A DNA stretch of 53,846 nucleotides from Escherichia phage mEp554. The DNA lies in sequence record PP180005. One strand, 5' to 3'. Both the position numbers and the translations under genes were made by a program. Below, in pieces: positions 9,913-51,136 of this stretch; the stretch's first letter is position 1; each line of letters begins with the position of its first letter. A model generated the notes under the pieces. That model had not been told where the DNA came from. It ran no database searches and saw only the letters and a program-made list of their open reading frames with translations.

Positions 9913-9954
9913 TATACAAAATGGATTGACTAGGTGTTTTACGGGGCGTATATT
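9913..9954 (+). promoter_or_regulatory. Rightward early promoter (-35 TTGACT 9926-9931, 17 nt, -10 TATATT 9949-9954) abutted by the 12-mer TATACAAAATGG (9913-9924)
   Basis: Near-consensus sigma70 hexamers. AT-rich UP-like region upstream. Confidence 0.7.
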
Positions 9955-9995
9955 GCGAGTCAAAGGAGGAAGCAAGGCAGGGAAAGAAGGTTACT

Positions 9996-10033
9996 TGCTC
10001 TTTAACAATCTGGTCAGCCGCTGGAAGTGCGGC
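9996..10033 (+). promoter_or_regulatory. nut site: boxA TGCTCTTTAACAA (9996-10008) plus boxB-like hairpin GCCGC-TGGAAGT-GCGGC (10017-10033)
   Basis: boxA is identical to the E. coli rrn boxA consensus as I recall it. It lies in the leader between the promoter and the N-like gene. Confidence 0.7.
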
Positions 10034-10088
10034 AATTAACGAAGATGATTTTTATTAAGTATCATCAAGGATATAAGGAGATCAGATC

Positions 10089-10379
10089 ATGACAGTTACA
10101 ATCATGTATGGCAAATGTGATAGCAAAATAAACGCCAGGGAACGCAGAAGAATAAAAAGAGAAAACGAAAGAAAATCATCACCTGCAATTAATAAAACGG
10201 ACAATGTGGATAAAGCCATTCGCTTTGCAAACGATGAAAGATGCAAACCCAATGGCATTAAAGAACGTCGCAAAGGAGCAGTAAAATGGTATACGGAAAA
10301 TGAAAGCGGCAACTACTACCACGCAACGCAACCACGCCAACTAGGGGAGAAACCACTGGATAAAGTCCGTTACCATTAA
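10089..10379 (+). CDS. N-like antitermination protein candidate (arginine-rich motif)
   Basis: 96 aa. SD AAGGAG. Residues 14-29 (INARERRRIKRENERK) resemble lambdoid N ARMs. First gene after the nut site. Confidence 0.55.
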   Translation: MTVTIMYGKCDSKINARERRRIKRENERKSSPAINKTDNVDKAIRFANDERCKPNGIKERRKGAVKWYTENESGNYYHATQPRQLGEKPLDKVRYH

Positions 10380-10409
10380 TACATATCGTAAACAATCGGA
10401 GGTGACGTT

Positions 10410-10532
10410 ATGGTTATTAAGGCGCTTCAATTCAAACTTGCGGTAGCGGAAATGCTTCACGATGCCGAAATGTGGAGCGCCGCAAATAAAGCCTTGTACA
10501 TAGTGTTAACAGCTAAGGAGATCAAAGAGTGA
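10410..10532 (+). CDS. 40-aa micro-ORF (MVIKALQFKLAVAEMLHDAEMWSAANKALYIVLTAKEIKE)
   Basis: SD GGAGGTG. Its stop overlaps the GTG start of erf (GTGA). Confidence 0.5.
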   Translation: MVIKALQFKLAVAEMLHDAEMWSAANKALYIVLTAKEIKE

Positions 10533-11170
10533 AAACAGAATTACACAAAAAGCTGTGGACGATTCAACAAACGCTGAACGCACCGAAAAATCAGCGCAAT
10601 AATTTCGGTGGGTACAATTACAGGTCGGCGGAGGATATTTTGGAGGCGGTTAAGCCACTTCTTCAAAATATAACGCTGACTGTTAGCGATGAAATCGTCC
10701 TGATCGGCAATCGCTATTATGTGAAAGCCACTGCAACACTAAGCGACGGAGAAGATGAAATTGCGGTAACTGCTTACGCCAGGGAAGAAGAAAGCAAGAA
10801 GGGAATGGACGCAAGCCAGTTAACTGGCGCGACATCAAGTTATGCGCGTAAATACGCGTTGAACGGCTTGTTCTGCATTGATGACGCAAAAGATCCTGAT
10901 ACTGATGCTTACGCGAAACAGACAAATCAACAGCCGCGACAGCAGAAAAACACGCCGAAACAACAACCACAGCAGCAGAAAGCGCCGCCAAATCCTGATG
11001 AAGTATTAGCACGTTTCTGTGATGCGGCAGCGAAAGCGCCGGACGCTAACAAGTTGCGCGAGATATTCGGGAAGTGCTGGAAGATACTTCCTAAAGATTC
11101 AGAGCAGCAACAGAAAGCTAAAGACGTTTATGATATTCGCTTAAAAGAGCTTAACGGGGAGATCGGTTAA
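10529..11170 (+). CDS. erf: ERF-family single-strand annealing protein
   Basis: 213 aa, GTG start. ERF signature (FGGYNYRSAEDILEAVKPLL...GATSSYARKYALNGLF). Confidence 0.85.
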   Translation: MKTELHKKLWTIQQTLNAPKNQRNNFGGYNYRSAEDILEAVKPLLQNITLTVSDEIVLIGNRYYVKATATLSDGEDEIAVTAYAREEESKKGMDASQLTGATSSYARKYALNGLFCIDDAKDPDTDAYAKQTNQQPRQQKNTPKQQPQQQKAPPNPDEVLARFCDAAAKAPDANKLREIFGKCWKILPKDSEQQQKAKDVYDIRLKELNGEIG

Positions 11171-11637
11171 TGAGCTTAAATTCAATCACGCTGGGCGGTA
11201 ATATCGGAAATGATATGGAAGTTCGCTACACGCAAAACGGTAAAGCTATTGGTAGCTTTCCGTTAGCTGTAACGAATGGCTACGGTGATAATAAGCGGAC
11301 AATGTGGATCACTTGCCTGGTATTTGGCGAGCGTGCGGAAAAATTAGCTCCACATATTCGTAAGGGTGGAAAAATAGTGGTAAGCGGTCGCCTGGATGTT
11401 CGGCAATATGACCGGAACGACGGCACGAAGGGGACGGCGGTAGAAGTGGCGGTCAATGAATTTGAGTTCATGGCTGTTAACCAGCAAGGCCAACAGCAAG
11501 GCCAGCAGCAGGGCCAGCGCCAGCCGCCGCAACAGAATCAAGGCGGCGGCAATCAACCTCCGATGGATTTTGACGATGATATCCCATTTAGTTGCGTGGG
11601 GTTACAATATGGAAAACATAGAATCTACGCGTTGTAA
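11170..11637 (+). CDS. ssb: Single-stranded DNA-binding protein with a 15-aa extension beyond the canonical DDDIPF tip
   Basis: OB-fold N-terminus, Gln/Gly-rich linker, PPMDFDDDIPF, then SCVGLQYGKHRIYAL before the stop. Confidence 0.85.
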   Translation: MSLNSITLGGNIGNDMEVRYTQNGKAIGSFPLAVTNGYGDNKRTMWITCLVFGERAEKLAPHIRKGGKIVVSGRLDVRQYDRNDGTKGTAVEVAVNEFEFMAVNQQGQQQGQQQGQRQPPQQNQGGGNQPPMDFDDDIPFSCVGLQYGKHRIYAL

Positions 11638-12139
11638 ACGGTGTATAAAATGTGGGGCGTTATTGCCCCTTTCTTCTTTCTATAAACATAAATTAATGGC
11701 TGACGGTCACTCAAATAAATGTAAGGAGTGTACGAAGCAAGATGTAAAAGATAATCGCAAGAAAAATATAGAACGCTACAGGGAATACGACAGAGAGCGC
11801 AACCAATCAGGGGATAGGAAAGCGTTAAGACGTCGTTATCGTCAAAGCGATGAAGGTAAGGAGGCGCATAAAAGGGCTTGCGACAAGTGGGTTAAAAATA
11901 ACGAGAAGAAGCGCCACGCCGAAATAATGGTAGGTAACGCTATCCGCGATGGCAAATTAATTAAACAACCTTGCGAAGTATGCGGCAGAGAGGACCGCGT
12001 ACACGCGCACCATTGCGATTATGATAAGCCGCTCGATGTTATGTGGCTTTGCCCGATATGCCATCGAGCGTGGCACAACGAACACGGTGAAGGAGCTAAT
12101 GCACACGACGAGGTATTAAATGGTGAGCGAATATCTTAA
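11609..12139 (+). CDS. HNH endonuclease-like zinc-finger protein
   Basis: Start at ATG 11609. CxxC pairs and the HNH core (VHAHHCDYDKPLDVMWLCPICHRAWH). Confidence 0.75.
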   Translation: MENIESTRCKRCIKCGALLPLSSFYKHKLMADGHSNKCKECTKQDVKDNRKKNIERYREYDRERNQSGDRKALRRRYRQSDEGKEAHKRACDKWVKNNEKKRHAEIMVGNAIRDGKLIKQPCEVCGREDRVHAHHCDYDKPLDVMWLCPICHRAWHNEHGEGANAHDEVLNGERIS

Positions 12140-12401
12140 AGCACCGCCACCGCCGCGAACAAAAGAGCAAGTTCTAAAAGAAGCCCGTGATCAAATCGAT
12201 CGCGGGCTTTTTTTATGCGGCACGGCGGCGGATCGAATGGCGAAAAGATTTAGTGACCTGTACGCAAAACAAATATGGTTCGACAACTGGCAGGCAAGTT
12301 TTTACCCACTGCAAAGAAAACCGGATATGCATTGGCCTGAATATGTCGATCCACGTATGCGCAAATATCGCGGGCGTATGGGCCAGGTTATTAACGATTA
12401 A
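12120..12401 (+). CDS. Hypothetical protein (93 aa)
   Basis: ORF track. Packed on the same strand. Confidence 0.55.
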   Translation: MVSEYLKAPPPPRTKEQVLKEARDQIDRGLFLCGTAADRMAKRFSDLYAKQIWFDNWQASFYPLQRKPDMHWPEYVDPRMRKYRGRMGQVIND

Positions 12402-12415
12402 TGAGGTATTAAATC

Positions 12416-12640
12416 ATGATCGAAGAAAAAGAAATTGATAAAGAAACGCCTGATGGTCGTGATGAGCTTATTTATTTTGATGGCGGCATGTATGAGATCG
12501 ATACGTCGGCTGGCTGGCATGATAAATGGCCTCTGCCTACTCGCAAGGAATTGAGCGATCGTAAATCATTCGGCGAAGATGCAGAACGCCTTGCTAATAA
12601 CAAGTGGCTTAACAAGTTTATTGCGGAGGGCGACAAATGA
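12416..12640 (+). CDS. Hypothetical protein (74 aa)
   Basis: SD GAGGT upstream. Confidence 0.6.
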   Translation: MIEEKEIDKETPDGRDELIYFDGGMYEIDTSAGWHDKWPLPTRKELSDRKSFGEDAERLANNKWLNKFIAEGDK

Positions 12641-12750
12641 ATTTTGCAAAAATTGCCGCACTGATTGCGGCCCTGTCTATCGCCGTGGTGTATCTGAGCG
12701 TATCTCTTTGTATCACGGTAGCGATCATTAAACTTATTACTAACATGTGA
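12637..12750 (+). CDS. 37-aa single-TM micro-ORF (MNFAKIAALIAALSIAVVYLSVSLCITVAIIKLITNM)
   Basis: ATGA overlap with the upstream stop. Hydrophobic core. Confidence 0.5.
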   Translation: MNFAKIAALIAALSIAVVYLSVSLCITVAIIKLITNM

Positions 12751-12758
12751 GGCCAATC

Positions 12759-12878
12759 ATGAAAGTCGGTAAGGATATTGTGACAGTCGCGTTTTGCATT
12801 ATTTGTTTCCTGTTTGTGGTTGTGTTTTGTGGCGCATTTGCCGCGCTGGTTAGCCTTATTTTCAGGGGATTGTTGTGA
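12759..12878 (+). CDS. 39-aa single-TM micro-ORF (MKVGKDIVTVAFCIICFLFVVVFCGAFAALVSLIFRGLL)
   Basis: Stop overlaps the next start (TGATG). Hydrophobic core. Confidence 0.45.
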   Translation: MKVGKDIVTVAFCIICFLFVVVFCGAFAALVSLIFRGLL

Positions 12879-13150
12879 TGAAAACATGGGATGCAAAGGC
12901 TGGTGATCTTGTCGTATTGCCTGAATATCGTGATGACCCTGGCCTGGTTGTACTGAATAAGATGTGTAACGATCTCGAACGTCCATTACTGGTTAAATAC
13001 CTGGACGGAACAATCATAGAGCCGCGTTTCTTTGATGATATTGAACTGAAGGCCCGCAATGTTCGCGTTAAGCCGTTCCGGGCTTATGTTGAAGACCACT
13101 GGCGGAAATTGTTCGCCGGACTGAATGGGATGTACGGCGTATGGCTATAA
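12878..13150 (+). CDS. Hypothetical protein (90 aa)
   Basis: ORF track (GTG 12875 / ATG 12878). Confidence 0.55.
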   Translation: MKTWDAKAGDLVVLPEYRDDPGLVVLNKMCNDLERPLLVKYLDGTIIEPRFFDDIELKARNVRVKPFRAYVEDHWRKLFAGLNGMYGVWL

Positions 13151-13654: not shown

Positions 13655-13667
13655 AAGGATAAATATC

Positions 13668-14288: not shown

Positions 14289-14291
14289 TAT

Positions 14292-14352
14292 TGTGATTGC
14301 GATCACATAGCTATACATTTTGTACTGTGATCGCGAATCCGTTTTGTAAACT
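14292..14352 (+). promoter_or_regulatory. Composite regulatory region: CRP-type palindrome TGTGATTGCGATCACA (14292-14307), 12-mer variants (14315-14326, 14339-14350), -10 TAAACT (14347-14352)
   Basis: All 10 core positions of TGTGA-N6-TCACA are present. The palindrome centre lies about 60 bp upstream of the predicted start. Confidence 0.55.
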
Positions 14353-14387
14353 GAAAGCAAAAGGTTTACGGTACGGAGGGAAATAAG

Positions 14388-14606: not shown

Positions 14607-14608
14607 TT

Positions 14609-14701: not shown

Positions 14702-14704
14702 TAT

Positions 14705-17874: not shown

Positions 17875-17876
17875 AA

Positions 17877-17957
17877 TTTACAAAATGGCGTCATTGCGTG
17901 ATGCGGATCACATAATGGCGCTTTTTGTCTTGTTTGCATGTATCCATTTTGTATACT
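17877..17957 (+). promoter_or_regulatory. Composite regulatory region: TTTACAAAATGG (17877-17888), CRP-type palindrome CGTGATGCGGATCACA (17897-17912), promoter -35 TTGTTT (17930-17935), 16 nt, -10 TATACT (17952-17957) inside CCATTTTGTATA (17944-17955)
   Basis: Read directly from sequence. The palindrome centre lies about 60 bp upstream of the predicted start. Flanking 8-bp inverted repeat TTGTTTGC / GCAAACAA. Confidence 0.55.
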
Positions 17958-19234: not shown

Positions 19235-19413
19235 AAAACGAAATTAAAGATCTGCAAATAGATATTCAGCGCGATGAGCATGATTTAGCTACAGTCCGAC
19301 AAATCCAGGCTTTCCACATGAGAGAACTGCTTGCGCTGAAAGAGCTTGAAAGAAAGTTGGTCCAATCAATATCTGATCGTAAACGTCTGGTTGCTCGTTA
19401 CGGGGGCAAATAA
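19231..19413 (+). CDS. Hypothetical coiled-coil protein (60 aa)
   Basis: ATGA coupling at both ends. Confidence 0.55.
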   Translation: MKNEIKDLQIDIQRDEHDLATVRQIQAFHMRELLALKELERKLVQSISDRKRLVARYGGK

Positions 19414-20135
19414 TGAATCTGGAATCAATTCTTAAATTCCACTTCCCAAAATCACCGCGTTTGTCAGATGAAAGCCGGGGCACGTCCCCGGATGCGCTTA
19501 ATACTACTGATGCACTAACTGCCGCAGGTATGGCGCAATCGCGCGTAGAGCTTGGTTATAGCGCTTTTTTGGGGAAGATGGAACTATCACAAGCCGAAAA
19601 GCATAAGGCCGTAGTTTTGCTTATAGAGCGTTTAAGGGCTATGGCAAAAGACTATGAATACGTTATGGAACTGGACGAGGCCAAACGCAATGATCTCATT
19701 ATTCTTGTTGCCGTTTTCGCATTTCGGGATTATTGCCAGAGTGCCGCGACGGAAAAAACTTGTATGGAGTGCGGCGGATATAAATTTACGTTTGACGAAT
19801 ACGGGGAAAAACACCTTTGTAAAAAATGCAAGGGGCATGGGACAGTTCGCAATCATTGTAAACAATGCAAGGGCCGTGGCGAAGTACCGGATAAAGCAGC
19901 CAGCGAAGCGGCGGAAATGCCAGTGTTCAAAACGTGCCAGCGCTGCGGCGGGCGCGGGTACTCGCGTTTCCCTGTAGATCTTGTCCGGCAGGCGGTTAAT
20001 CAGCTTGTTTTTCCGGTAAGCCGATCAACATGGTGGAAGAAATACCGGGCTTTCTATGAAGACGCCATTGCCGAATTGTTCAAAGAAGAGGCGCGGGCTG
20101 ACAACGAAATTAAACGAGTGACGCGGGGTGAATGA
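19413..20135 (+). CDS. Q-like late antiterminator (zinc-ribbon CxxCxGxG repeats)
   Basis: 240 aa. Position after ninG-rusA. Four CxxCxG(x)G motifs (CMECGGYK, CKKCKGHG, CKQCKGRG, CQRCGGRG). Family recalled as the phage-82-type antiterminator. Confidence 0.6.
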   Translation: MNLESILKFHFPKSPRLSDESRGTSPDALNTTDALTAAGMAQSRVELGYSAFLGKMELSQAEKHKAVVLLIERLRAMAKDYEYVMELDEAKRNDLIILVAVFAFRDYCQSAATEKTCMECGGYKFTFDEYGEKHLCKKCKGHGTVRNHCKQCKGRGEVPDKAASEAAEMPVFKTCQRCGGRGYSRFPVDLVRQAVNQLVFPVSRSTWWKKYRAFYEDAIAELFKEEARADNEIKRVTRGE

Positions 20136-22534: not shown

Positions 22535-22571
22535 TTGCGTCATAATGTTGATTTTAATGAATAAATAAAAA

Positions 22572-22633
22572 TGTGATCTTTATCACAATGTATACAAAAT
22601 GGCATTGTTTCGGCAGTGCCGTTTTGTTATATA
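22572..22633 (+). promoter_or_regulatory. Composite regulatory region: CRP-type palindrome TGTGATCTTTATCACA (22572-22587), 12-mer TATACAAAATGG (22591-22602), promoter -35 TTGTTT (22605-22610), 17 nt, extended -10 TGtTATATA (22625-22633)
   Basis: Perfect TGTGA-N6-TCACA core. Its centre lies about 60 bp upstream of the predicted start. Confidence 0.6.
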
Positions 22634-22666
22634 TAAGTCACTGAAAGACGAATGGAAGGTAAGAAG

Positions 22667-29487: not shown

Positions 29488-30858
29488 ATGCCATCCAATT
29501 TAGAATTGGCGGTTAATGCTGCCTTGTCTCAACGCCAGGCGGCCTACGCCCGCTATGCCGCAGCACACCCATTCACTATGGGTATAGATGCCAAACGGGA
29601 TGCAGCGTGGAGTGAATACGGATTCAAAGAAGAAATAACCTATGACGATCTATACAAGCTGTATCGTCGCGGTGGTATCGCTCATGGTGCTGTAGAGAAG
29701 ATTGTTACTACTTGCTGGCGCACTATGCCAACGATGATCGAGGGAACCGAAGACGAGAAAGCCGAAAAGGAAACACCCTGGGAAAGAGAAATCAAGAAAC
29801 AATTCGACAACAGATTTTGGCGCACCATTGCCGAATGTGACCGCCGCCGCCTCATCGGTCGTTATGCTGGCCTGTTGATTCATGTCAGAGATAACCAGCC
29901 GTGGGATAAGCCAGTAACAAAAGGCGTAGGCATTGCCAAATTTACCCCGGTATGGGCTGGTGCTCTGACGCCGAAGGACTTCGAAGAAAACCCGGACAAT
30001 GAAAACTATGGCCTGCCGACGTGGTGGGAGTACAAGGAACGCATTAACAGTAAGACCATAGCAAGAAGGATCCACCCTGACCGCATATTCATCTTCGGTG
30101 ACTATTCTGATGATGCAATAGCCTTCCTTGAGCCGTCATATAACGCCTTTGTCTCGCTTGAGAAGGTGGAAGGGGGTAGCGGTGAATCATTCCTGAAAAA
30201 CGCTGCCCGCCAGTTAGCTATCTCGTTCGACAAGGATATTGACTTCCGGTCACTGGCAGCCACATACGGATGCGACGTCACAGAGCTTCGAGAAAAATTC
30301 AACGAGGCAGCGGATGAAATGAATAAGGGTAACGACGTGATGATGGCATTACAAGGGGCCACAGTTAGCCCGCTGGTGACTGCCGTATCTGACCCGTCAG
30401 CAACCTATGATGTCAACCTGCAAACCGCCGCCGCTGGTATTGATATTCCGACTCGCATCCTGGTTGGGAACCAGCAAGGCGAACGCGCATCAACCGAAGA
30501 TCTCCGCTACTTCAACAGCCGCTGTATGACTCGCAGGGAGGAAATCGGCGGTGAACTTGAGGAACTATTCCGCAAGATGGCAGATCTTCGCCTTATCAGC
30601 ATACCAGTTGACGTATCAGTTATATGGGACGACCTGAACGCCATGACTAAAGCCGAACTACTGGAAGCGGCATACAAAATGGCGCAAATCAATCAGGCTT
30701 GTTTGGCTACTGGTGAAGAAATATTTAGCGGTGACGAGATTCGCGAGGCTGCCGGATACGATGGCCCCGCTAGTGTAGTAGAAACGGAAGAGGGTGACGA
30801 TGATGAAGGTGAAGAAGATAATCAGGCGAATACCTCCAGCCGCGATAATGCCATCTAA
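29488..30858 (+). CDS. Portal protein
   Basis: ATG 29488 (SD AGGAG). About 456 aa with an acidic C-terminus, immediately after terL. Confidence 0.8.
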   Translation: MPSNLELAVNAALSQRQAAYARYAAAHPFTMGIDAKRDAAWSEYGFKEEITYDDLYKLYRRGGIAHGAVEKIVTTCWRTMPTMIEGTEDEKAEKETPWEREIKKQFDNRFWRTIAECDRRRLIGRYAGLLIHVRDNQPWDKPVTKGVGIAKFTPVWAGALTPKDFEENPDNENYGLPTWWEYKERINSKTIARRIHPDRIFIFGDYSDDAIAFLEPSYNAFVSLEKVEGGSGESFLKNAARQLAISFDKDIDFRSLAATYGCDVTELREKFNEAADEMNKGNDVMMALQGATVSPLVTAVSDPSATYDVNLQTAAAGIDIPTRILVGNQQGERASTEDLRYFNSRCMTRREEIGGELEELFRKMADLRLISIPVDVSVIWDDLNAMTKAELLEAAYKMAQINQACLATGEEIFSGDEIREAAGYDGPASVVETEEGDDDEGEEDNQANTSSRDNAI

Positions 30859-37576: not shown

Positions 37577-37891
37577 TTACTTGTATGCTGCGAATCGGCA
37601 TCTTGCTTCATCCAGGTCATGAACATCGTACACGTTATCGTAAATGTAAGTTGCTACCTGTGCTTTCTGTACGTCAGTTGCGTTCGGGAACTCCATGCTT
37701 ACGAAAGTCACTGCATCAACGTAGTGTTTGAACATCTTTTTGTTAACGCACAGTGCGTAAATCAATACGGCAGGCCAGCAAATCAGCGCGCCAAAGAATG
37801 CCATGAGCATATTCAGATGTTTTTTCTGAGCTACAACCATAGTTGCGACGAATCCGATGAAGCAAATTACCAGTTCCATGATGCACCCCAT
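37577..37891 (-). CDS. Moron membrane protein, 2 TM plus soluble C-terminal domain (100-104 aa)
   Basis: ORF track. Alternative start ATG 37879 (SD GGGGTG). Confidence 0.6.
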   Translation of the reverse strand: MGCIMELVICFIGFVATMVVAQKKHLNMLMAFFGALICWPAVLIYALCVNKKMFKHYVDAVTFVSMEFPNATDVQKAQVATYIYDNVYDVHDLDEARCRFAAYK

Positions 37892-37998
37892 TAATTACGT
37901 TTATCTTCGGTTGTCATTGCCAGCACTAGCACAGCCATCACATTAAATGCTAACCATGCTGTAATATATACATCTATAACCGTTTTGATTGTGTCCAT
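37891..37998 (-). CDS. 35-aa TM micro-ORF (MDTIKTVIDVYITAWLAFNVMAVLVLAMTTEDKRN)
   Basis: TAATG coupling to the downstream gene. Confidence 0.45.
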   Translation of the reverse strand: MDTIKTVIDVYITAWLAFNVMAVLVLAMTTEDKRN

Positions 37999-38011
37999 TT
38001 ACCCGCCACGC

Positions 38012-38098
38012 TTATTTCTTGTTTTTAAGTGCTTTCAACATTTTTTCGATGAAATCGGCATAACGCTCATGCTCGTTTGGTCGGTAGTAGTTTTTCAT
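38012..38098 (-). CDS. 28-aa micro-ORF (MKNYYRPNEHERYADFIEKMLKALKNKK)
   Basis: SD GAGGA 6 nt upstream. Confidence 0.4.
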   Translation of the reverse strand: MKNYYRPNEHERYADFIEKMLKALKNKK

Positions 38099-38176
38099 TT
38101 TCTTATCCTCTTTTGCTTCCTCCGGTTAATCCGGCCTTCTAAATCCCTTTACTCTATCCCTTTCCTTTAGCCTCTT

Positions 38177-38236
38177 TATACAAAATGTATTCGTTGAAGT
38201 GAAGCCATTTTGTATAAAATAGAGATCAGGATCACA
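38177..38236. promoter_or_regulatory. Divergent regulatory region: inverted pair TATACAAAATGT (38177-38188) / CCATTTTGTATA (38205-38216), -10-like TATAAA (38213-38218), degenerate palindrome AGAGATCAGGATCACA (38221-38236)
   Basis: Read directly. Lies between the minus-strand moron cassette and the tape measure gene. Confidence 0.5.
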
Positions 38237-40608: not shown

Positions 40609-40638
40609 AACCCCGGTACAATGCCGGGGTTATCTTTT
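40609..40638. terminator. Bidirectional rho-independent terminator
   Basis: AACCCCGG-TACAATG-CCGGGGTT with T-rich flanks on both strands. Confidence 0.8.
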
Positions 40639-40924: not shown

Positions 40925-41063
40925 ATCTCACACCATCGCGCTTGTATGGTTCGCCATCAGCAAACGGGATTAACTCATCGTTTGCCACCATTCGATTGAA
41001 CCAGTCTTTCAGAGCAACCAGGGAGAACCGGATCCCGTAACTGTGCAATTCGCGCCACCTCAT
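40914..41063 (-). CDS. 49-aa micro-ORF (MRWRELHSYGIRFSLVALKDWFNRMVANDELIPFADGEPYKRDGVRYGR)
   Basis: ATGA overlap with the stop of the 84-aa gene. Confidence 0.45.
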   Translation of the reverse strand: MRWRELHSYGIRFSLVALKDWFNRMVANDELIPFADGEPYKRDGVRYGR

Positions 41064-41314
41064 TTATGTGCCCCTTTCACTCCACAATGTCGGTTGTATT
41101 CAAGGTGGTCAATAATTAGCCAAACCTTCAAATCTTCACTGAACAGCCGCCAATCAGGGTTTATGTCCATCTTGTAACCGTAACCATCGCGTAACTTTTT
41201 GGGGTAAACCTCTTTTTTAAGAAAAGCATCAAGTAATTGTTTTCCTTTCTTGATGATCCGTTCTTGGGCGTTTTTCTGTGCTTTCAGGTTTTTGCCAATC
41301 ATTACCAATTTCAT
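41060..41314 (-). CDS. 84-aa protein, possibly a RelE/YoeB-superfamily toxin fold
   Basis: ORF track. Loose resemblance to YoeB/RelE (RIIKKGKQLLDAFLKK ... WRLFSEDLKVWLIIDHLEYNRH). Not verified. Confidence 0.6.
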   Translation of the reverse strand: MKLVMIGKNLKAQKNAQERIIKKGKQLLDAFLKKEVYPKKLRDGYGYKMDINPDWRLFSEDLKVWLIIDHLEYNRHCGVKGAHK

Positions 41315-41334
41315 AACTCACCCCACGCAATCAA

Positions 41335-41490
41335 TCAGTTGACCACTTTCAGGAAGAAATCACGGTATTCATCTTCTTTTGCATTCATCATGAATTGACC
41401 GTATTTGAACGCATCATCAAAACCCTTCACAATCGCAACTTCCACCTGTTCGAATGCTTTGTTTAGCATTACCACTACATAGCGTTCCAT
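41335..41490 (-). CDS. 51-aa protein (MERYVVVMLNKAFEQVEVAIVKGFDDAFKYGQFMMNAKEDEYRDFFLKVVN), first gene of the moron operon
   Basis: ATG 41490 with SD AAGGGGG. The ORF-track version (to 41661) lacks an SD. Confidence 0.5.
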   Translation of the reverse strand: MERYVVVMLNKAFEQVEVAIVKGFDDAFKYGQFMMNAKEDEYRDFFLKVVN

Positions 41491-41561
41491 ATTGGCCCCC
41501 TTTGTTGGTACTGCTTTCTCTTCTTGCTTTCTGTATACATCTTGTTGCGTCCTGTGTGAAG

Positions 41562-41584
41562 CCATTTCGTAAACTGGGTATAAT
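41562..41584 (+). promoter_or_regulatory. Candidate promoter for the distal tail genes: 12-mer variant CCATTTCGTAAA (41562-41573) with -10 options TAAACT (41570-41575) or TATAAT (41579-41584)
   Basis: Read directly. GTGAAGCCATTT is shared with the tape-measure upstream region. Confidence 0.45.
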
Positions 41585-41659
41585 TCTTGTGACGAAGTTC
41601 TCATTTTTCGCGTAGAAGCGCGTAAAGATGTATGCAATATGTAACTTATAGGGGGAATC

Positions 41660-42214: not shown

Positions 42215-42240
42215 AACCCCGCTTCGTGCGGGGTTTTCTT
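42215..42240 (+). terminator. Rho-independent terminator (one of two near-identical copies)
   Basis: AACCCCGC-TTCGT-GCGGGGTT followed by TTCTT. Near-duplicate at 50718-50745. Confidence 0.8.
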
Positions 42241-42389: not shown

Positions 42390-42638
42390 CTATAAGTTAT
42401 CACGCAGATAATTAACGCCCTTATCAGTGACGAATGAATGATTAACCTGGTTTTCATCCGTCATAATGATGAATAACTTTTCTTGTAGGTACTTAGCTTT
42501 CGGGTACAACGTTAAACAAACCTGATACAAAATCCCGCGCTCAATCAGCAAATCAATAAATTCGTGTTCATGATAACCGATGATGCGGGCGGCCTGTTTC
42601 AACGTGTACACATAATCACCGTGATTGCGCCGCCCCAT
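42390..42638 (-). CDS. 82-aa KilAC-like DNA-binding domain protein
   Basis: ORF track. YTLKQAARIIG...F..LL.ERGILY...P...Y...LF...T.KG..YL pattern recalled for KilAC. Confidence 0.5.
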   Translation of the reverse strand: MGRRNHGDYVYTLKQAARIIGYHEHEFIDLLIERGILYQVCLTLYPKAKYLQEKLFIIMTDENQVNHSFVTDKGVNYLRDNL

Positions 42639-42647
42639 GCTGCCGCC

Positions 42648-42998
42648 TTATTTATCGAATGCGCTCAGGTTATCGATGCAGAAGTCTTTCGCAGCTTTTT
42701 CGTATTCGCGTTTTGCTTGCGGATTGTCTGCCGGGAAACCTTTTGCGTGTATTTCACCAGGGCAAGCCTGATCCATAGAATCTGCAAAGTTAACATTGGC
42801 GTTGAAGTTAATATCTTTCGGGTTCATCTCTTCCACCTTATCCGGCACTTGTACAGGAATAACATAATAATCACGAGCATTAGACCAACAGCGGAGCAAT
42901 TCGCAACCTTCATTGCGCGCTGATTCGAATGTGTCAAATAGTCCCATGCTTTCCCATTCACATTTATCAGTCCACACGTCTAATCTGTATTTTTTCAT
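42648..42998 (-). CDS. Hypothetical moron protein (116 aa)
   Basis: ORF track. Confidence 0.55.
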   Translation of the reverse strand: MKKYRLDVWTDKCEWESMGLFDTFESARNEGCELLRCWSNARDYYVIPVQVPDKVEEMNPKDINFNANVNFADSMDQACPGEIHAKGFPADNPQAKREYEKAAKDFCIDNLSAFDK

Positions 42999-43170: not shown

Positions 43171-43184
43171 TTCACACCTCCGCG

Positions 43185-43286
43185 CCATTTTGTTAATCAT
43201 GCTTCCTTTTGAGTACAATATACATACTGTAAAAAACGCGATCAACCGTTTTGGTATGATTTAGCGTGATGGCGATCACAAAATGA
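43185..43286. promoter_or_regulatory. Divergent regulatory region: CCATTTTGTTAA (43185-43196); minus-strand promoter (-10 TATATT 43217-43222, -35 TTGATC 43240-43245); CRP-type palindrome CGTGATGGCGATCACA (43265-43280) merging into ATCACAAAATGA
   Basis: Near-consensus hexamers with a 17-nt spacer on the minus strand. The palindrome centre lies about 61-62 bp upstream of that promoter's predicted start. Confidence 0.55.
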
Positions 43287-48200: not shown

Positions 48201-50711
48201 GAGAAAAAGGCTACAGCGGAATCACTGGAAACCATCACAGCAGAAATGAACACGATGGATTCTAATCTTAAGGGTCAGATCTCCAACGTGGAACGCGCAG
48301 TGGCTGACGAATCAAGCGCCCGCGCTGAAGCAATCAACGGCGTTAACGCATCAATAAGCAATCTCGACAAGAAAACCGACGCCAGCGTCAATAGACTTGA
48401 TCAGGCCATCGCAGACGAAACGAACGCCCGCACACAGGCAGTCAGTGACGTTAACGCGAGTGTCTCATCGCTAGACAAGAAAACTGACGCCAGCGTGAAA
48501 CGCCTGGATCAAGCAATAGCAGACGAAACCAGCGCAAGAACTGAAGCCATCAGCGGTGTGAATGCGTCAATTTCCACGCTTGATAGCAAGGTAACAAGCA
48601 ATGTAACGCGCATAGATAAATCTATCGCCGACGAAACGAAGGCCCGCACTGACGCAATCAGCGGGGTCAAAGCAAGTATTGACACACTTGAAGGTAACAC
48701 CAATTCAGAAGTTAAACGCCTTGATCAGTCGATTGCCGACGAGGCCAGCGCCCGCGCCCAGGCTGTGAGCGATGTTAAAGCATCAATAAGCAACCTTGAA
48801 AGCAAAACTGACGCCAGCGTTTCACGTCTCGACAAGGCAATTGCAGACGAAACACAGGCAAGAAGCGCTGCAATAACAGATGTTAAGGCTGATTTGACAA
48901 CGCTTGAAAACAGCACAAACGCCAGCGTTAAACGTTTGGATCAGGCTATTGCAGACGAATCAAGCGCCCGCGCTGAAGCAATCTCAGGCATTAACGCGGA
49001 GATCGGCAGCATTGAAAATAGCGTTGACAAAAACAGCGATGATATAAATCAGACAAAAGCAAGCCTGCAAAACGCATCTATTGCTCTGATTAACAACTCA
49101 ATCGCTCAAACCAACACGCGTGTTACGCTTACGGCCCAATACAAGAAAGGACGCAAAGAAACCAACGCGCAAATTGACCGTATTGACAATGTTATCGCAG
49201 AAGAGAAAAAGGCTACAGCCGAATCAATTGGCGTGGTAAAAGCATCGATCACGGATCTTGATAAGAAAACCGATGCCAGCGTTTCGCGTCTCGATAAAGC
49301 AATTGCAGACGAAACCAACGCACGCAGCCAGGCGGTGAGCGACGTTAACGCAAGCATTTCAGCGCTCGACAAGAAAACCGATGCCAGCGTTAAGCGTCTG
49401 GATCAAGCTATTGCAAATGAAACCAGCGCACGCAGCGAGGCAATCAGCGGCGTGAATGCAAGCATTAACACCCTTGAAAGCAACACCGAATCCGAAGTTA
49501 GCAGACTGGACCAGGCAATTGCTGACGAGGCCAGCGCCAGAGCGCAAGCCATCAGTGGTGTGAATGCGTCAATTTCAACCCTTGATGGCAAGGTTACAAG
49601 CAACGTGACCCGCATCGACAAAGCCATTGCAGACGAAACGAAGGCACGCACAGACGCAATCAGTAGCCTCAATTCATCGCTTACCAGTACGATTAACTCG
49701 AAGGTGTCTGAGGTATCAACGGCGCTTTCTACACATGAAGCATCAAGCGCGGAAAAATTCGGCCAGATCTCAGCGTCTTTCGAATCTGTAAACTCAAGTA
49801 TTACAGAATGGTCGCAGGCTATGGCAACGGCTGACGAGGCATTGTCAACCAAAATTGATCAGTTAACAGTAACCGTTAACGGTAACAAAACGGCGATCGA
49901 GACGACATCGAACGCGCTAACCGATTTCAAGGGTAACGTTGATGCGTCGTATTCCATCAAGCTGGCAACCGATAACAACGGCATGAAGTACGCTACAGGT
50001 ATGTCGCTTGGCCTGACTGGTAACGGTACAAACTTTCAATCGCAGTGTATTTTCCTTGTTGACCGCTTCGTGTTAATGACAGCAGCAAACGGCACATATA
50101 CAACGCCTTTCTATATGTCTAATGGTGCAATGTATGTGAAAGAAGCGTTTATTAAAAACGCATCAATAGGAGAAGCCAAAATTGCAAACGCTGCAATCAC
50201 ATCAGCCAAAATCGCACAGCAAATACAGTCAACAGAATTTGTTAAAAACTCAAAAGGCTGGATGATTAACAAAGATGGGTGGGCTGAGTTCAATAGCGTT
50301 ACGGTGAGGGGTACTGTGTATGCTACGGACGGTAAGTTCGCCGGTTCACTTGAGGCGAAAACCTTTATCGGTGATGTTGCAAATATGTATACAGGAGGTG
50401 ACGTTAGCAGGTTAAATGATGGCGTACTGGAAAAAACAATTACATACAACGATACATCTAACGCAGCGTACAGACGACACATCTGCGTTATGGCAAACGT
50501 TAAAGGTTTTGGTGGCTGTACAATAACTATCGGAAGTTCAGAAAAATCCCTTTCTATGAGTGGAGACGAACGCCTTGTCATGCATTCAGCGGCAATAACT
50601 ACCAGTGGCGTTACAGTTAAAATTAAGGTATCCGCTCAAAATGGTAGGGGTGCATATATAAATTCGCCGACCGTCATTGTGTCGCGCGGTTCTGGTTCAT
50701 TCTCAGGATAA
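45225..50711 (+). CDS. Central tail fiber / host specificity protein J with a greatly expanded coiled-coil repeat region
   Basis: 1828 aa. The N-terminal about 800 aa are collinear with lambda J up to the FN3 domain. The C-terminal part (MKYATGMSLGL...FLVDRFVL) is also J-like. About 770 aa of repeats lie between. Confidence 0.85.
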   Translation: MSSGGGKAKTPTLLNDNLYHKQFYRVLDILSEGPIYGPVNQKAPLNSVMLNDTPITDANGNTSVPGVSVAWRNGTADQSPINGFNAIESTVIVNAKVTHDTPIIRTVSDPNVNRVRLNLGVDSLVQSDDKGNQYNTSVTLMVDVKPSSSTTWSLVKDIHIGPGKQSGEYLEAHIIKAPDEKPFDIRVRRVTPDSTGDLLHNDTRWSSYSEIIDDNLSYPHTAVAGAVIDHDQYTDTPTRTYHMRGLIVDVPDNYDPETRTYSGLWLGGFKKAYTNNPAWLFRYLVKNERFGLARHAGYIDVDDGALYTLSQYCDQLVNDGYGGLEPRMTLNAYITEQMSARDLLDNIAGMFRGIALWDGQRLTVMIDAPQDPIATITNANVVDGAFTRSSIARAESYNAVIVSWTDPENGWEQSKEYVADDELIARDGYNETTLEAFGCTSRGQAYRAGKWLIETAKREPSKFTFKMARDAIHFTPGDIIEILDNNRAGARLGGRIVANNGKVITVDKVDSDLVAAGDTISLLDSDGKFKKHQITGVNGNNITLASAPAWIRNGTVFAVSTESAKPVLCRITSVAETENNSVYTIEAAQHDPHKQAVVDEGAIFEVNNDTLNHFRVPNIENLKVLNVGSETVQCRATWETQTTTHRLTFEIRVYNTEGRIVATYETTNYRYDFYGLDAGSYTIGIRGRNDTGMKGAESIVDLVIGAPAAPIGVNWVPGVFQATVYPISKTTLTTDTAYDFYYSGENQITDPSKVTTLAQFTGRGYQWTFGGMNTGHTYYVYVRTRNAFGVSDFVEVSGKPTENFDEISDYVMKDVMESEQFKDMIGDIKDLGDRADLIESATNDLKNATDNLKTATDNLTNITDDLRVETDNLTNITDELRTDTDGLITETGAIKADTDTLKKETEDLYKKVEENADDIGQHEARIDSLEVSSEKVGSELAQAKASLQNASLALINNSLAQTNTRVTLTAQYKKGRTETKAEIDRIDNVIAEEKKATAESLETITAEMNTMDSNLKGQISNVERAVADESSARAEAINGVNASISNLDKKTDASVNRLDQAIADETNARTQAVSDVNASVSSLDKKTDASVKRLDQAIADETSARTEAISGVNASISTLDSKVTSNVTRIDKSIADETKARTDAISGVKASIDTLEGNTNSEVKRLDQSIADEASARAQAVSDVKASISNLESKTDASVSRLDKAIADETQARSAAITDVKADLTTLENSTNASVKRLDQAIADESSARAEAISGINAEIGSIENSVDKNSDDINQTKASLQNASIALINNSIAQTNTRVTLTAQYKKGRKETNAQIDRIDNVIAEEKKATAESIGVVKASITDLDKKTDASVSRLDKAIADETNARSQAVSDVNASISALDKKTDASVKRLDQAIANETSARSEAISGVNASINTLESNTESEVSRLDQAIADEASARAQAISGVNASISTLDGKVTSNVTRIDKAIADETKARTDAISSLNSSLTSTINSKVSEVSTALSTHEASSAEKFGQISASFESVNSSITEWSQAMATADEALSTKIDQLTVTVNGNKTAIETTSNALTDFKGNVDASYSIKLATDNNGMKYATGMSLGLTGNGTNFQSQCIFLVDRFVLMTAANGTYTTPFYMSNGAMYVKEAFIKNASIGEAKIANAAITSAKIAQQIQSTEFVKNSKGWMINKDGWAEFNSVTVRGTVYATDGKFAGSLEAKTFIGDVANMYTGGDVSRLNDGVLEKTITYNDTSNAAYRRHICVMANVKGFGGCTITIGSSEKSLSMSGDERLVMHSAAITTSGVTVKIKVSAQNGRGAYINSPTVIVSRGSGSFSG
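48288..49712 (+). repeat. Eleven copies of a 108-bp (36-aa) tandem repeat in two blocks (48288-49034; 49227-49712) within a roughly 1-kb segmental duplication
   Basis: Unit V.RLDQAIADE..AR..A.S.VNASIS.LD.KTDAS. A duplicated 174-bp segment at 48054-48227 and 49056-49229 (KASLQNAS.ALINNS.AQTNTRVTLTAQYKKGR...). Confidence 0.85.
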
Positions 50712-50717
50712 AAAAAC

Positions 50718-50745
50718 AACCCCGCTTCGCGCGGGGTTTTCTTTT
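50718..50745 (+). terminator. Rho-independent terminator after J (near-duplicate of 42215-42240)
   Basis: AACCCCGC-TTCGC-GCGGGGTT followed by TTCTTTT. Confidence 0.8.
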
Positions 50746-50992
50746 AGTAGTTGGCTACACAGTTCGACGGGCTACCGATGCGGCGCATATTGTGATCGAG
50801 TTCATGACACCATTGCCCAGTATACGGCAGTTTTTCAGTGTCATAGACAAGATGACCACTACCATCATAAACAATATCATGTGGAATTACTCCGCTATTT
50901 GGCAGGTTGTGCAATGCGGCCTCTTTGTCAACAGCACAGCCAGTAAGAGCAACAGCCGCAGCGAACAAAACCACTTTGAACACGTTTTTCAT
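50744..50992 (-). CDS. Moron lipoprotein (82 aa); superinfection-exclusion (Cor/Llp-like) role suggested only by position
   Basis: Signal peptide with lipobox LTGC. Lies between J and the tail fiber gene on the opposite strand. Confidence 0.7.
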   Translation of the reverse strand: MKNVFKVVLFAAAVALTGCAVDKEAALHNLPNSGVIPHDIVYDGSGHLVYDTEKLPYTGQWCHELDHNMRRIGSPSNCVANY

Positions 50993-51087
50993 TTTTGAAT
51001 CCTCATTCTTGTTGGTTCATCCGGTTTATCCGGTGGCTTAAATATCCGACAAAACCACATTTCGTATATTGATATAAATCAACAAAT

Positions 51088-51136
51088 ACATTTTGTGTAA
51101 GCAGAAAATGCAACAAAGATCACAAAATGGTAGAAT
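51088..51136 (+). promoter_or_regulatory. Tail-fiber promoter region: inverted pair ACATTTTGTGTA (51088-51099) / ATCACAAAATGG (51119-51130) with extended -10 TGgTAGAAT (51128-51136)
   Basis: Read directly, 34 nt upstream of the tail fiber start. Confidence 0.5.

Follow-up and report, generated by a model that had tools for sequence, protein, structure and literature searches.

The window analyzed here is the whole 53,846-nt stretch of DNA from Escherichia phage mEp554, a temperate coliphage of the mEpimmI group, which also includes mEp021 and mEp010. It encodes a lambda-CI-like repressor with two recognizable domains, Pfam HTH_3 (4e-13) for DNA binding and Peptidase_S24 (1e-18) for peptidase activity and dimerization. 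The lambda repressor structure 3bdn matches residues 15-208 (E=1e-18), and a repressor of CI/LexA architecture is encoded in the same phage as the sites described below. Expression of Rep021 confers immunity, and in the description of the mEpimmI group the operators are unknown (PMC11893012). No Cro was identified in the window; the product of the first leftward gene, which occupies the 'Cro position', resembles the winged-helix domain of a replication initiator.

A repeated word in non-coding DNA

The 12-mer CCATTTTGTATA has four exact copies in the window against 0.01 expected, and none of 100 shuffles reached four. The initial annotation had likewise called the four exact copies non-random. 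When up to two mismatches are allowed, 23 copies are found in the whole window (6.9 ± 2.3 expected), 13 of which are non-coding although non-coding DNA makes up roughly 9% of the window. With at most one mismatch, seven of eight are non-coding. The degenerate form CC[AG]TTYYGTAWA has nine matches, all outside genes, and the broader family pattern T[AT]TACA-N4-G[GT] has 21 (8.2 in shuffles), 13 of them non-coding. Comparable copy numbers within genes were not found by the full scan, as the gene-internal counts (about ten, with about six expected in the 91% coding share) are near chance once normalized for length.

The initial annotation described every copy as intergenic, which holds for the copies that it listed but not for the full scan, where about ten lie in genes. 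Its match counts are correct for the copies at 17877 and 38177 (11/12), for those at 41562, 43185, 14339 and 51088 (10/12) and for 14315-26 (9/12). The copies at 43275-86 and 9107-18, also given as 9/12, match at 8/12, and that at 51119-30, given as 10/12, matches at 9/12. Several copies had been overlooked (Table 1).

Nine of the ten PWM matches scoring at least 19 are non-coding, and the tenth lies across the 18-bp gap between genes at 5328. Of the weaker matches, which were left out of PWM building, seven of 13 are non-coding (about one expected). In total, about 24 candidate sites were counted, spread across 46 kb in about 12 loci, and about half of them are weak. They are present at all five junctions between divergent genes, and only those at 5328, 6465 and 10377 lie at intra-operon junctions. 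The ten strongest are split evenly between the strands, five plus and five minus.

Table 1. The repressor gene, copies of the 12-mer and putative operators in the window
Position	Strand	Feature	Sequence	Remarks
5328..5344	+	Single site, leftward operon	GTTTACA AAA TGGAAAA	18-bp gap upstream of helicase gene; 12-mer copy at 5329 (-), 11/12, initially overlooked
6465..6481	+	Single site, gene junction, leftward operon	GTTAACA AAA TGTATAC	PWM 16.2; right half 7/7
9068..9084	+	Putative PL operator	GTTTACA GAA TGGCGTT	Starts 86 bp upstream of repressor ATG; 12-mer copy at 9069 (-), 10/12, initially overlooked
9103..9119	+	Putative second operator, PL/PRM region	AATTACA TTT TGTGACT	Starts 51 bp upstream of repressor ATG
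9154..9801	+	Gene for lambda-CI-like (Rep021-type) repressor		Candidate site-binding protein
9912..9928	+	Putative PR distal operator	GTATACA AAA TGGATTG	Exact 12-mer at 9913-9924 (-)
9937..9953	+	Putative PR proximal operator, weaker	TTTTACG GGG CGTATAT	Overlaps -10 (TATATT, 9949-9954)
10377..10393	-	Weak candidate	GTTTACG ATA TGTATTA	Just after N-like gene; PWM 13.7
14311..14327		Site of pair upstream of gene 14388	CTATACA TTT TGTACTG	
14335..14351	-	Site of pair upstream of gene 14388	GTTTACA AAA CGGATTC	
17876..17892	+	Site directly after methyltransferase stop codon	ATTTACA AAA TGGCGTC	
17940..17956	-	Best dyad among strong sites	GTATACA AAA TGGATAC	Exact 12-mer at 17944-17955 (+)
22568..22633	+	Putative promoter/operator cassette, head of long rightward (late) operon		CRP-like site 22572-22587; -35 TTGTTT 22605-22610; extended -10 TGtTATATA, hexamer 22628-22633
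22590..22606		Operator in this cassette		Exact 12-mer at 22591 (-)
22615..22631	-	Weaker second site in this cassette		
30671	-	12-mer copy, 11/12, initially overlooked		Within portal gene
38176..38217		Inverted operator pair, gap between leftward accessory cassette and tape-measure gene		
38176..38192		Site of this pair	TTATACA AAA TGTATTC	
38201..38217	-	Site of this pair	TTATACA AAA TGGCTTC	Exact 12-mer at 38205 (+)
41533..41574		Same cassette, gap between leftward ParE-like toxin cassette and minor tail gene (41660)		
41533..41549		Site of this cassette	GTATACA TCT TGTTGCG	
41558..41574	-	Site of this cassette	GTTTACG AAA TGGCTTC	
43181..43259		Three-site cluster, gap between leftward cassette and tail L-J operon		
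43181..43197	-	Site of this cluster		
43218..43234		Site of this cluster	ATATACA TAC TGTAAAA	
43243..43259	-	Site of this cluster, weak		
51053..51163		Four weaker sites upstream of tail-fibre gene (51170)		51053 (-), 51084 (-), 51118 (+), 51147 (+); 12-mer copy at 51057 (+), 10/12, initially overlooked
		About nine more 12-mer copies, 10/12, initially overlooked		Within genes

The 17-bp site and its conservation

The 12-mer is positions 2-13 of a putative 17-bp site, GTATACA-AAA-TGGnTnn, with the core TACA-N3-TG(T/G). The binding unit first proposed, the 12-mer itself, is thus replaced by a longer one that contains it. The 17-bp unit is an imperfect pseudo-dyad with one strong and one weaker half: half-site agreement is 5-7 of 7 positions on the left and 1-7 of 7 on the right (mean about 3.7, with about 1.75 by chance). 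A perfect TACA-N3-TGTA is found at 38176, 14311 and 43218, and TGG in most strong sites. Positions 1, 6, 7 and 11 vary and the remainder are fixed in every context compared. The constraint pattern is identical beside a -10, beside a -35, after a stop codon and in a 5' UTR, which argues for a single mode of recognition. However, the right half is weak, and the TGG that is invariant here is TGT in related phages, so a dimer on a true dyad is a proposal only.

Copies are found at the same positions in about 45 relatives in the cI region and about 31 in the tail region. Apart from two matches, they are absent from 49 lambdoid phages (about 880 kb) that have only tail genes in common with the window. 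In INPHARED and IMG/VR both the word and the paired pattern are restricted to mEpimmI phages, and the pair at 38.2k is present in 43 IMG/VR contigs, each belonging to an mEpimmI phage. No heteroimmune relatives with the same cassettes were found, every IMG/VR contig with the paired pattern being of one immunity group. Since all relatives share one immunity type, covariation of site and repressor within the group is uninformative.

Sites beside the repressor gene

At the early promoters adjoining the repressor gene, the sites overlap the predicted -10 and -35 sequences of PL and PR. The site at 9068 covers the predicted PL -10 (TAAACT on the minus strand, 9067-9072) and is kept in 26 unique relatives, in which the spacer toward the -35 varies. 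Around the second site, ACrTTTTGTGACTTGCATCAAA is invariant in relatives. PR is predicted as TTGACT-17-TATATT. Its distal site overlaps the -35 (TTGACT, 9926-9931) by 3 bp and is centered at about -41; 35 unique relatives all have AAAAAGTATACAAAATG and TTGACT unchanged. The proximal site contains a perfect small dyad, TACG-N3-CGTA, and in relatives its left half reads TATCACA, TATCACG or TTATACG, all half-site types of the homologous phages described below.

The arrangement at PR weighs against repression, because this is the promoter most needing it and the strong site lies at an activator-type position (about -41), only the weak site covering the -10. Lambda CI at OR2 occupies an activator-type position relative to PRM. 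The same arrangement would suit sites bound by another protein, such as an unrecognized Cro-type lytic regulator, a Q-like protein or a host factor, with the repressor using other operators. A second binder is to be anticipated anyway, because Cro-type proteins as a rule use the same operators as CI; the window phage has no identified Cro, and it encodes a Q-family antiterminator (19413-20135). However, the PL and PR regions have no other repeated or dyad element in common except boxA, and the type of site tracks the repressor DNA-binding domain across phage groups. The sites also lie at early as well as late promoters, unlike a Q-binding element. By eye, the consensus sequences of IHF, LexA, DnaA, TyrR and OmpR are unconvincing matches to the word, with only a partial OmpR overlap. 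A different binder therefore seems to us quite improbable, and we retain the repressor as the candidate.

Sites in the early and late operons

The pair upstream of gene 14388 is accompanied by a predicted -10 (TAAACT, 14347-14352) and by a perfect CRP core at 14292-14307, centered at about -59.5. The pair is kept in 33 unique relatives. Further downstream, the site at 17876 overlaps the 5' arm of terminator t4, whose hairpin (17887-17922, -24 kcal/mol) is followed by a T run. The site at 17940 covers a -10 (TATACT) and is invariant across 20 unique relatives. The nutR2 boxA (GCTCTTTAAAAA, from 17973) follows about 17 bp downstream of it; nutR2 has been described previously (PMC11893012). The initial annotation paired the copies at 17877 and 17944. 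They are indeed paired, but the pair flanks an intrinsic terminator just upstream of nutR2.

Among relatives the cassette at 22.6k is present, absent or shifted, as a mosaic joint, and the variable positions of its motif are those in CCATTyyGTAwA. The site at 5328 is at the same place in nearly all relatives, and that at 10377 is only partly conserved.

Tail-region cassettes

Both copies at 38.2k are almost invariant in 18 unique relatives, and each strong half is the -10 of one outward predicted promoter. The 41.5k locus reads CCATTTTGTAAA in most relatives. At 43.2k, the predicted promoters are TTGATC-17-TATATT leftward and an extended -10, TGgTATGAT, rightward. The four sites at 51053..51163 have PWM scores of 11-15, are all non-coding and form conserved blocks in relatives. 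We interpret three of the four tail-region promoter regions as pairs of divergent promoters.

Every tail-region cassette adjoins a reverse-oriented accessory cassette. The accessory cassettes do not have the same gene content in the window and in mEp021, and their other ends are bounded by near-identical terminators. These features, and the position of the 22.6k cassette at a junction where the gene content of relatives differs, could be explained if the repeats were mainly recombination or mosaic-boundary sequences, short homologies for cassette exchange with a secondary role or none in regulation. However, the copies at PL, PR and nutR2 lie in collinear regions that are well conserved across all relatives. 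Neither the fixed -35/-10 register nor the 25-bp pairing is needed for recombination, and 12-17 bp is short for homologous exchange. We consider recombination a very improbable main function. For the repressor, these loci pose a different difficulty: sites on the reverse-oriented accessory promoters (lipoprotein, toxin-antitoxin) would silence genes of a kind often expected to be expressed in lysogens.

Promoter geometry

The centers of paired sites are 25 bp apart at PR, 22.6k, 38.2k, 41.5k and 43.2k (between the 43218-43234 and 43243-43259 sites), and 24 bp apart at 14.3k. When the loci are aligned on predicted start sites, one site lies at -49..-38 and the other at -20..-9. At PL and PR, at two internal early promoters, at the late promoter and in the four tail-region promoter regions, paired sites flank the -35 and overlie the -10. 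Most of what had been noted about placement stands: forward copies overlap a -10, for which the strong half GTATAC(T) doubles, a -35-like hexamer starts 1-2 nt after reverse copies, and the copies mark the heads of transcription units. The inverted pairs are also real, and can be described more exactly as two adjacent putative operators with a fixed spacing.

CRP-type palindromes had been reported beside three loci. They occur beside six, and one is a terminator stem. CRP-like cores with at most one mismatch number eight in the window (1.7 expected), six of which are beside cassettes. They are centered at -59.5 to -62.5, or at -70.5, from predicted start sites; half of the relatives have a degenerate right half at 22.6k. 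Class I CRP-dependent promoters have TGTGA-N6-TCACA centered near -61.5 or -71.5. We rejected these palindromes as a third kind of operator because their TGT and ACA, being on the outside, reverse the arrangement of the operator core.

Alternatively, the word could be an intrinsic part of sigma-70 promoters with no dedicated protein, acting as a -10 with a conserved spacer upstream in one direction and as an A-rich proximal UP subsite just before the -35 in the other; the palindromic cassette would then be a compact bidirectional promoter duplicated around the genome. TATACT and TAAACT, both good -10 hexamers, follow CCATTTTG in five copies, and TTGACT, TTGTTT, TTCACT and TTCACA start 1-2 nt after the reverse copy. 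The reverse copy itself, ACAAAATGG, agrees at 7/9 with the published proximal UP consensus AAAAAARNR. Since the word thus resembles a -10 and a UP subsite, part of the conservation could reflect promoter function, and this counts against the repressor. With CRP-like sites near -60, the reverse copy would lie exactly where the alpha C-terminal domain is placed, and the 22.6k cassette behaves like a mobile module.

However, the CCATT and GG/CC ends are conserved and have no known sigma-70 use. A T at -7 is absent in several exact copies (TATACA, TATAAA). In an extended -10 the TG occupies -15/-14, one base upstream of the hexamer. Here it abuts TATAxx directly, so this reading of the 12-mer was rejected; true TGn spacing is found only in one-base-longer variants at 22.6k and 43.2k. 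Copies also occur where no promoter is expected, at 17877, 5328, 6465 and, in relatives, in the 5' UTR of a minor tail gene. The word is confined to one phage group, and the homologous sequence in other phages is the operator triplet of related repressors. We thus think a purely intrinsic promoter element unlikely. The word probably looks like a promoter element because the strong half of the putative operator doubles as a -10, whereas its weak half shares bases with the -35 of the promoter facing the other way.

Other readings of the word were also rejected. As a -35 (TTGTAT) it fits 43185 alone, and at 17944 the -10 would then land on boxA. Sigma-32, sigma-S, sigma-28 and sigma-54 were unconvincing when their consensus sequences were compared by eye. 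An RNA-level element was rejected because copies occur in both orientations, mostly upstream of predicted start sites.

Operators of homologous repressors

Over residues 1-60, the repressor shares 43-52% identity with CI of Proteus Pm34-like phages, L247 and the Stx1/VT2-Sakai phage. Common to these proteins are an N-terminal arm, MK(T/M)(K/E)WY(D/E)LA, and a helix, (T/S)(K/Q)G..(S/G)HW. In the homologous phages there are exactly three GTATACA-N3-xGTAT or TATTACA-N3-TGT sites, positioned at -85, -51 and -24 relative to the cI ATG. Judging from position and annotation, these 17-mers form the classical three operators between cro and cI. Outside this triplet, scans of ±10 kb at 22 loci gave only three isolated matches. 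In the Stx1 phage record, equivalent 17-mers are annotated as putative operators at OR and OL, with OL1 and OL2 25 bp apart. VT2-Sakai has been treated as having six 17-bp operators (PMC10742460).

The first two sites upstream of the repressor gene in the window agree within 1 bp with the first two operators (-85, -51) of the homologues, that at 9103 being at the position of the second operator in Pm34-like phages and L247. As a control, repressors with lambda-type N-terminal domains that turned up in this search are flanked by TATCACCGC..GTGATA instead. The type of site follows the repressor DNA-binding domain, with MKxKWY...HW repressors flanked by TACA-N3-TGT-type triplets. At three IMG/VR loci with 36%-identical repressors an exact-word repeat search found nothing, but the GTATACA triplet was seen on direct reading of the intergenic region. 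No relative was found when GTDB genome contigs were scanned with the repressor alignment. The 933W repressor was considered as the closest characterized relative and rejected, as the protein is different and its operator is a 15-bp dyad with another half-site (PMC3317979).

A model for repressor binding

Two readings had been left open in the initial annotation, a promoter element and a binding site for some regulator, with the CI-like repressor named as one possibility. The evidence favors the repressor. On sequence grounds, the 12-mer is probably the strong half of a 17-bp site for the lambda-CI-like repressor, usually paired and placed on nearly every promoter of the phage. Dimers of the repressor would bind the 17-bp operator, and GTATACAAAATGGATAC and the 38176-38217 cassette are proposed targets. 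The strong outer halves of inverted operators overlap putative -10 hexamers (G-TATACT or G-TAAACT), and the weak inner halves, together with the 8-bp gap, would hold the -35 hexamers. With the -10 and -35 within the operator pair, two bound dimers would occlude the promoter and, in the symmetric cassette, both divergent promoters. We infer that binding is cooperative and that its effect is repression.

Such cassettes would act at PL/PRM, PR, upstream of gene 14388, at nutR2 and at the head of the long late operon. In the tail cluster they would also act at the four points where rightward transcription is interrupted by a reverse-oriented accessory cassette that ends in a bidirectional terminator. 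In this way one repressor would keep essentially all transcription units of the prophage silent.

A more speculative extension, which we consider possible but doubtful, is that a lambda-CI-type repressor came to silence the whole genome by means of a portable, roughly 70-bp cassette, in which a CRP site near -60 accompanies a pair of inverted operators, spaced 25 bp apart, around two back-to-back promoters. Each reverse accessory block would then be an insertion unit composed of a bidirectional terminator, leftward cargo and the cassette. The cassette would restart the interrupted tail operon, with transcription both ways under immunity and catabolite control, and would serve as the joint for exchange of such units among phages.

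Comparison with known systems

At lambda OR and OL, CI binds 17-bp pseudo-dyads whose neighbors are 23-24 bp apart, with pairwise cooperativity. The window resembles this system in the architecture and homology of the repressor, in 17-bp sites with a strong and a weaker half, here with centers 25 bp apart, and in the overlap of sites with the -10 and -35 of divergent promoters adjoining the repressor gene. However, the site sequence is unrelated to TATCACCGCCAGTGGTA, and lambda has six sites at two loci where the window has about 24 candidates at about 12 loci that include late and tail-region promoters. The repressor gene is also co-directional with PR, with a terminator between them, and no Cro was identified.

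VT2-Sakai/Stx1 and Pm34-like phages are closer, as they share the homologous repressor N-terminal domain and the core and length of the site (TAC(A/G)-N3-(T/C)GT cores in 17-mers), and the 25-bp distance between OL1 and OL2 of the Stx1 phage is that of the window pairs. There, however, the sites are limited to three at OR and three at OL, whereas the mEpimmI site has a fixed AAA center, TGG for TGT and a 46-kb spread.

Sites distributed across a genome, at promoters and short gene gaps, are known from the stoperators of cluster A mycobacteriophages, which are bound by L5 gp71-type repressors (PMC9283540). In both systems one immunity repressor with many scattered sites would silence the prophage globally. 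The stoperator repressor is monomeric, carries two DNA-binding domains and lacks an S24 domain, and its sites are strictly asymmetric 13-mers, oriented with transcription, that block elongation (PMC9283540). In contrast, the repressor in the window is of the CI/S24 type and the site is partly dyad-symmetric. There is no orientation rule, with both orientations found in the rightward region, mostly as inverted pairs, and nearly all sites overlap promoter hexamers.

Phages of the mEpimmI group are reported to be as common as lambdoid phages among human gut isolates and form a single immunity type (PMC11893012). This type, which had no defined operator, gains a 17-bp candidate and about a dozen loci. 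What is new here is the spread of operator-type sites beyond the two promoters beside the repressor gene. If the model is correct, a CI-type repressor would control essentially all units, including the internal promoters of the tail cluster and those of the accessory cassettes. A coliphage would then have an equivalent of mycobacteriophage global silencing, assembled from other components. This would aid the prediction of immunity and superinfection behavior and the design of virulent derivatives, and would help explain how inserted genes are tolerated within essential operons.

Distribution of the repeated word

The word CCATTTTGTATA occurs in four exact copies in the window, at 9913 (-), 17944 (+), 22591 (-) and 38205 (+), where 0.01 are expected; allowing two or fewer mismatches raises the count to 23, with 6.9 expected. 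The initial annotation had reported these four copies, and the positions it listed are correct; most of its match counts are also right, with three overstated by one (51119, 9/12; 43275, 8/12; 9107, 8/12). Several further copies were absent from its list (see table), along with about nine 10/12 copies within genes. Its statement that every copy is intergenic is correct for the copies it listed but does not extend to a full scan. With a conservative gene model in which coding sequence makes up 91% of the window, the non-coding 9% accounts for 13 of these 23, and for 7 of the 8 copies with at most one mismatch; the copy at 30671 and the nine or so 10/12 copies lie in genes. Comparable copy numbers in coding DNA, which the annotation had named as evidence against a regulatory role, were not seen once the counts are normalised for length; the number of within-gene copies is close to chance. 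All nine matches to the degenerate word CC[AG]TTYYGTAWA are non-coding, and sites occur at all five divergent-gene junctions. The antisense-strand match in the portal gene (30670-30686; 11/12, PWM score 13.6) is probably a chance occurrence.

Selected features of the mEp554 genome
Feature	Coordinates	Strand	Remark
Integrase	186-1400	+	
Leftward replication operon	1340-8892	-	
Repressor	9154-9801	+	followed by bidirectional terminator
Rightward genes	from about 9930	+	
Q-family antiterminator	19413-20135		
Lysis, head, tail genes	downstream of Q		
Additional copy	5329	-	11/12
Additional copy	9069	-	10/12
Additional copy	30671	-	11/12; portal gene
Additional copy	51057	+	10/12
CRP-core palindromes	9113-9128, 14292-14307, 17897-17912, 22572-22587, 41588-41603, 43265-43280		
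Weaker CRP-core palindromes	38221-38236, 51109-51124		
Accessory blocks	37577-38101, 41060-41490, 42390-42998, 50744-50992	-	
Near-identical strong bidirectional terminators	40609-40631, 42215-42235, 50718-50738		AACCCCG...CGGGGTT

A candidate 17-bp operator

Judged by sequence, TATACAAAATGG corresponds to positions 2-13 of a 17-bp site, GTATACA-AAA-TGGnTnn, whose left half is strong and right half weaker; a perfect TACA-N3-TGTA is present at 38176, 14311 and 43218. Among the further, weaker matches to a PWM trained on ten sites, 7/13 are non-coding (about one expected). We propose that the site is probably the target of the phage's CI-like repressor. The operators of the mEpimmI group are stated to be unknown in PMC11893012, a paper that defines the group's repressor (Rep021), an N-like protein (Gp17) and three nut sites without mentioning CCATTTTGTATA.

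The decisive lead to the operator reading is the set of three direct GTATACA repeats in the cro-cI intergenic region of three IMG/VR phages, whose repressor is 36% identical overall to that of the window and has the same first ten residues. A wider repressor search yielded about 55 relatives. The number of sites is exactly three in those that carry the MK(T/M)(K/E)WY...(S/T)(K/Q)G..(S/G)HW domain, and these lie at -85, -51 and -24 relative to the cI ATG; beyond this triplet, the 10 kb on either side of MK(T/M)(K/E)WY-type loci hold almost no copies (three isolated matches in 22 loci). The sites between cro and cI are GTATACAtaaAGTAT, GTATACAcatTGTCT and GTATACAtatCGTAT in the Proteus Pm34-like type and TATTACAtatTGTAT, TATTACAtcaTGTGC and TATCACAtacTGTAA in the L247 type. 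The window's sites 9068 and 9103 begin 86 and 51 bp before the repressor ATG, which places them no more than 1 bp from where the related phages have their first and second operators. As a positive control, lambda-type N-terminal-domain relatives from the same search carry TATCACCGC..GTGATA instead.

A cI of the VT2-Sakai type is encoded by the Stx1-converting phage AP005153. In the AP005153 record the equivalent 17-mers are marked as putative operators, three at OR (AAATACAataTGTACTT, AAATACAcatTGTGCAT, CAGTACAgagCGTAATA) and three at OL (TAGTACGataTGTACTT, CAATACAattTGTTCTA, TACAACGCTTTGTATTT), with an OL1-OL2 spacing of 25 bp. VT2-Sakai itself is treated in the literature as having six 17-bp operators (PMC10742460). 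Residues 1-60 of the window repressor are 43-52% identical to the Pm34-like, L247-type and Stx1/VT2-Sakai-type proteins.

Promoter geometry

When eleven predicted promoters are aligned on the -10, one copy lies at -20 to -9, its GTATA(C/A) starting the -10 hexamer, and an inverted copy, at -49 to -38, precedes a -35-like hexamer by 1-2 nt. This palindromic arrangement allows a single 42-bp unit to serve a pair of divergent promoters, as predicted at the loci near 38.2, 41.5 and 43.2 kb. Centre-to-centre spacing is 25 bp at these three loci, at 22.6 kb and at PR, the predicted early rightward promoter, and 24 bp at 14.3 kb. At PR the strong site (9912-9928) overlaps the predicted -35, and a weaker site (9937-9953, TACG-GGG-CGTA) lies over the predicted -10; the left half of the latter is TATCACA in relatives, a half-site type also found in L247.

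The strong half of the distal PR site is also a good leftward -10 (TATACT, minus strand), pointing towards the bidirectional terminator (9808-9825) at a distance of about 100 nt. The interval 9808-9925 could give a short leftward RNA; this stretch holds the conserved blocks CCAAAACGTAAAC and TTTAAATATCAAT.

The 17877/17944 pair flanks a predicted terminator, t4, and the 17944 copy is about 17 bp upstream of the boxA of nutR2, an antitermination site. The t4 element is a long hairpin (17887-17922, predicted fold -24 kcal/mol) followed by a T run, with compensatory changes in relatives seen by eye. Since an A tract flanks it on one side and a T tract on the other, it could terminate in both directions.

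Conservation and lineage restriction

The window is a complete temperate coliphage genome, about 90% identical to mEp010, mEp013, mEp044, mEp515, mEp021 and MagusPhagus, the mEpimmI group described in PMC11893012. BLAST matches of the cassette are limited to these six named phages, and the paired pattern in IMG/VR is found in 43 contigs, all of this group. At the repressor locus copies occupy the same relative positions in 44 IMG/VR relatives; an inverted pair, often two exact copies, precedes the tape-measure gene in all 31 relatives at the tail locus. Forty-nine lambdoid phages sharing only the minor tail gene with the window (about 880 kb) gave 2 matches at one or fewer mismatches. Alignments of relatives at PR and at PL, the predicted early leftward promoter, are footprint patterns: among 35 unique PR sequences AAAAAGTATACAAAATG and TTGACT are invariant and the spacer varies, and at PL CCATTnTG-TAAACT is fixed and the remaining spacer varies. 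The variable positions of the 12-mer (1, 6, 7 and 11) are identical in every context. A pure sigma-70 cassette, a -10 plus an UP-like element, would fit the hexamer geometry; however, copies at non-promoter places, the restriction to one lineage and the operator homology do not fit it, and we consider it unlikely.

The cassette at 22535-22651, upstream of 22652, heads a long operon reaching 37.5 kb. Some relatives have it and some lack it, in others it sits about 290 bp farther upstream, and the genes that follow it differ; it marks a mosaic joint. This would suit a word that represents recombination joints only, but the fixed register with promoter hexamers does not, which leaves that explanation very improbable.

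Several other repeats and genes were noted. Three to four tandem iterons (GGTGTCTCTCTGACACTACCCC) at 8214-8300, inside the replication initiator gene (7594-8595), are probably the replication origin. The host-specificity J gene has multiple internal direct repeats at 48300-49700 (for example four copies of ATTGCAGACGAA), in agreement with the repeat region reported in the J protein (PMC11893012). The first gene of the leftward operon, 8602-8892 (-), is at the expected Cro position and matches, in PHROGs, N-terminal winged-helix domains of O-like/DnaD-like replication initiators; it has no Cro match there, and no Cro-like gene was recognised in the window.

Accessory blocks and CRP-like palindromes

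The tail cluster is broken four times by reverse-oriented accessory blocks, each consisting of a strong bidirectional terminator at its end, leftward cargo and a predicted bidirectional promoter/operator cassette. Among their contents are a lipoprotein, a short fragment of a KilAC domain and a ParE-like toxin preceded by an ORF of 51 aa, and the same AAAATGAAAAAC begins several of the genes. At each of the three near-identical terminators a tail transcription unit ends on one side and an accessory block on the other.

CRP-core palindromes (TGTGA-N6-TCACA, one or fewer mismatches) number 8 in the window against 1.7 expected. Six of the eight adjoin operator cassettes, and their centres lie at -59.5 to -62.5 (one at about -70.5) relative to predicted start sites. 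This suggests that many phage promoters may be under class I CRP control. The palindrome at 22572 closely matches the extended CRP consensus, with a right half that is degenerate in about half of relatives, and that at 17897 doubles as the stem of t4.

Proposed mechanism

The candidate sites show most features of a CI-type-repressor operator and would work like those of lambda; their dyad symmetry is only partial. Their genome-wide spread resembles that of the stoperators of cluster A mycobacteriophages, but the monomeric two-domain repressor, strict site asymmetry and orientation rule of that system do not apply here (PMC9283540). Binding by another protein is a minor prospect, as nothing indicates one. 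A Cro-type protein is quite possibly a co-user of the same sites, although the first leftward gene looks like a replication-initiator winged-helix domain. Some points weigh against the repressor model: about -41, where the strong PR site has its centre, is a position of the activator type, the right half-sites match poorly, and accessory-gene promoters would be silenced too.

We infer repressor binding, its cooperativity, the start sites and the sign of regulation. In its C-terminal domain the repressor is homologous to lambda CI. Repressor dimers would bind paired operators, probably cooperatively, and would thereby block access to the -10 and -35 of all phage promoters in the lysogen.
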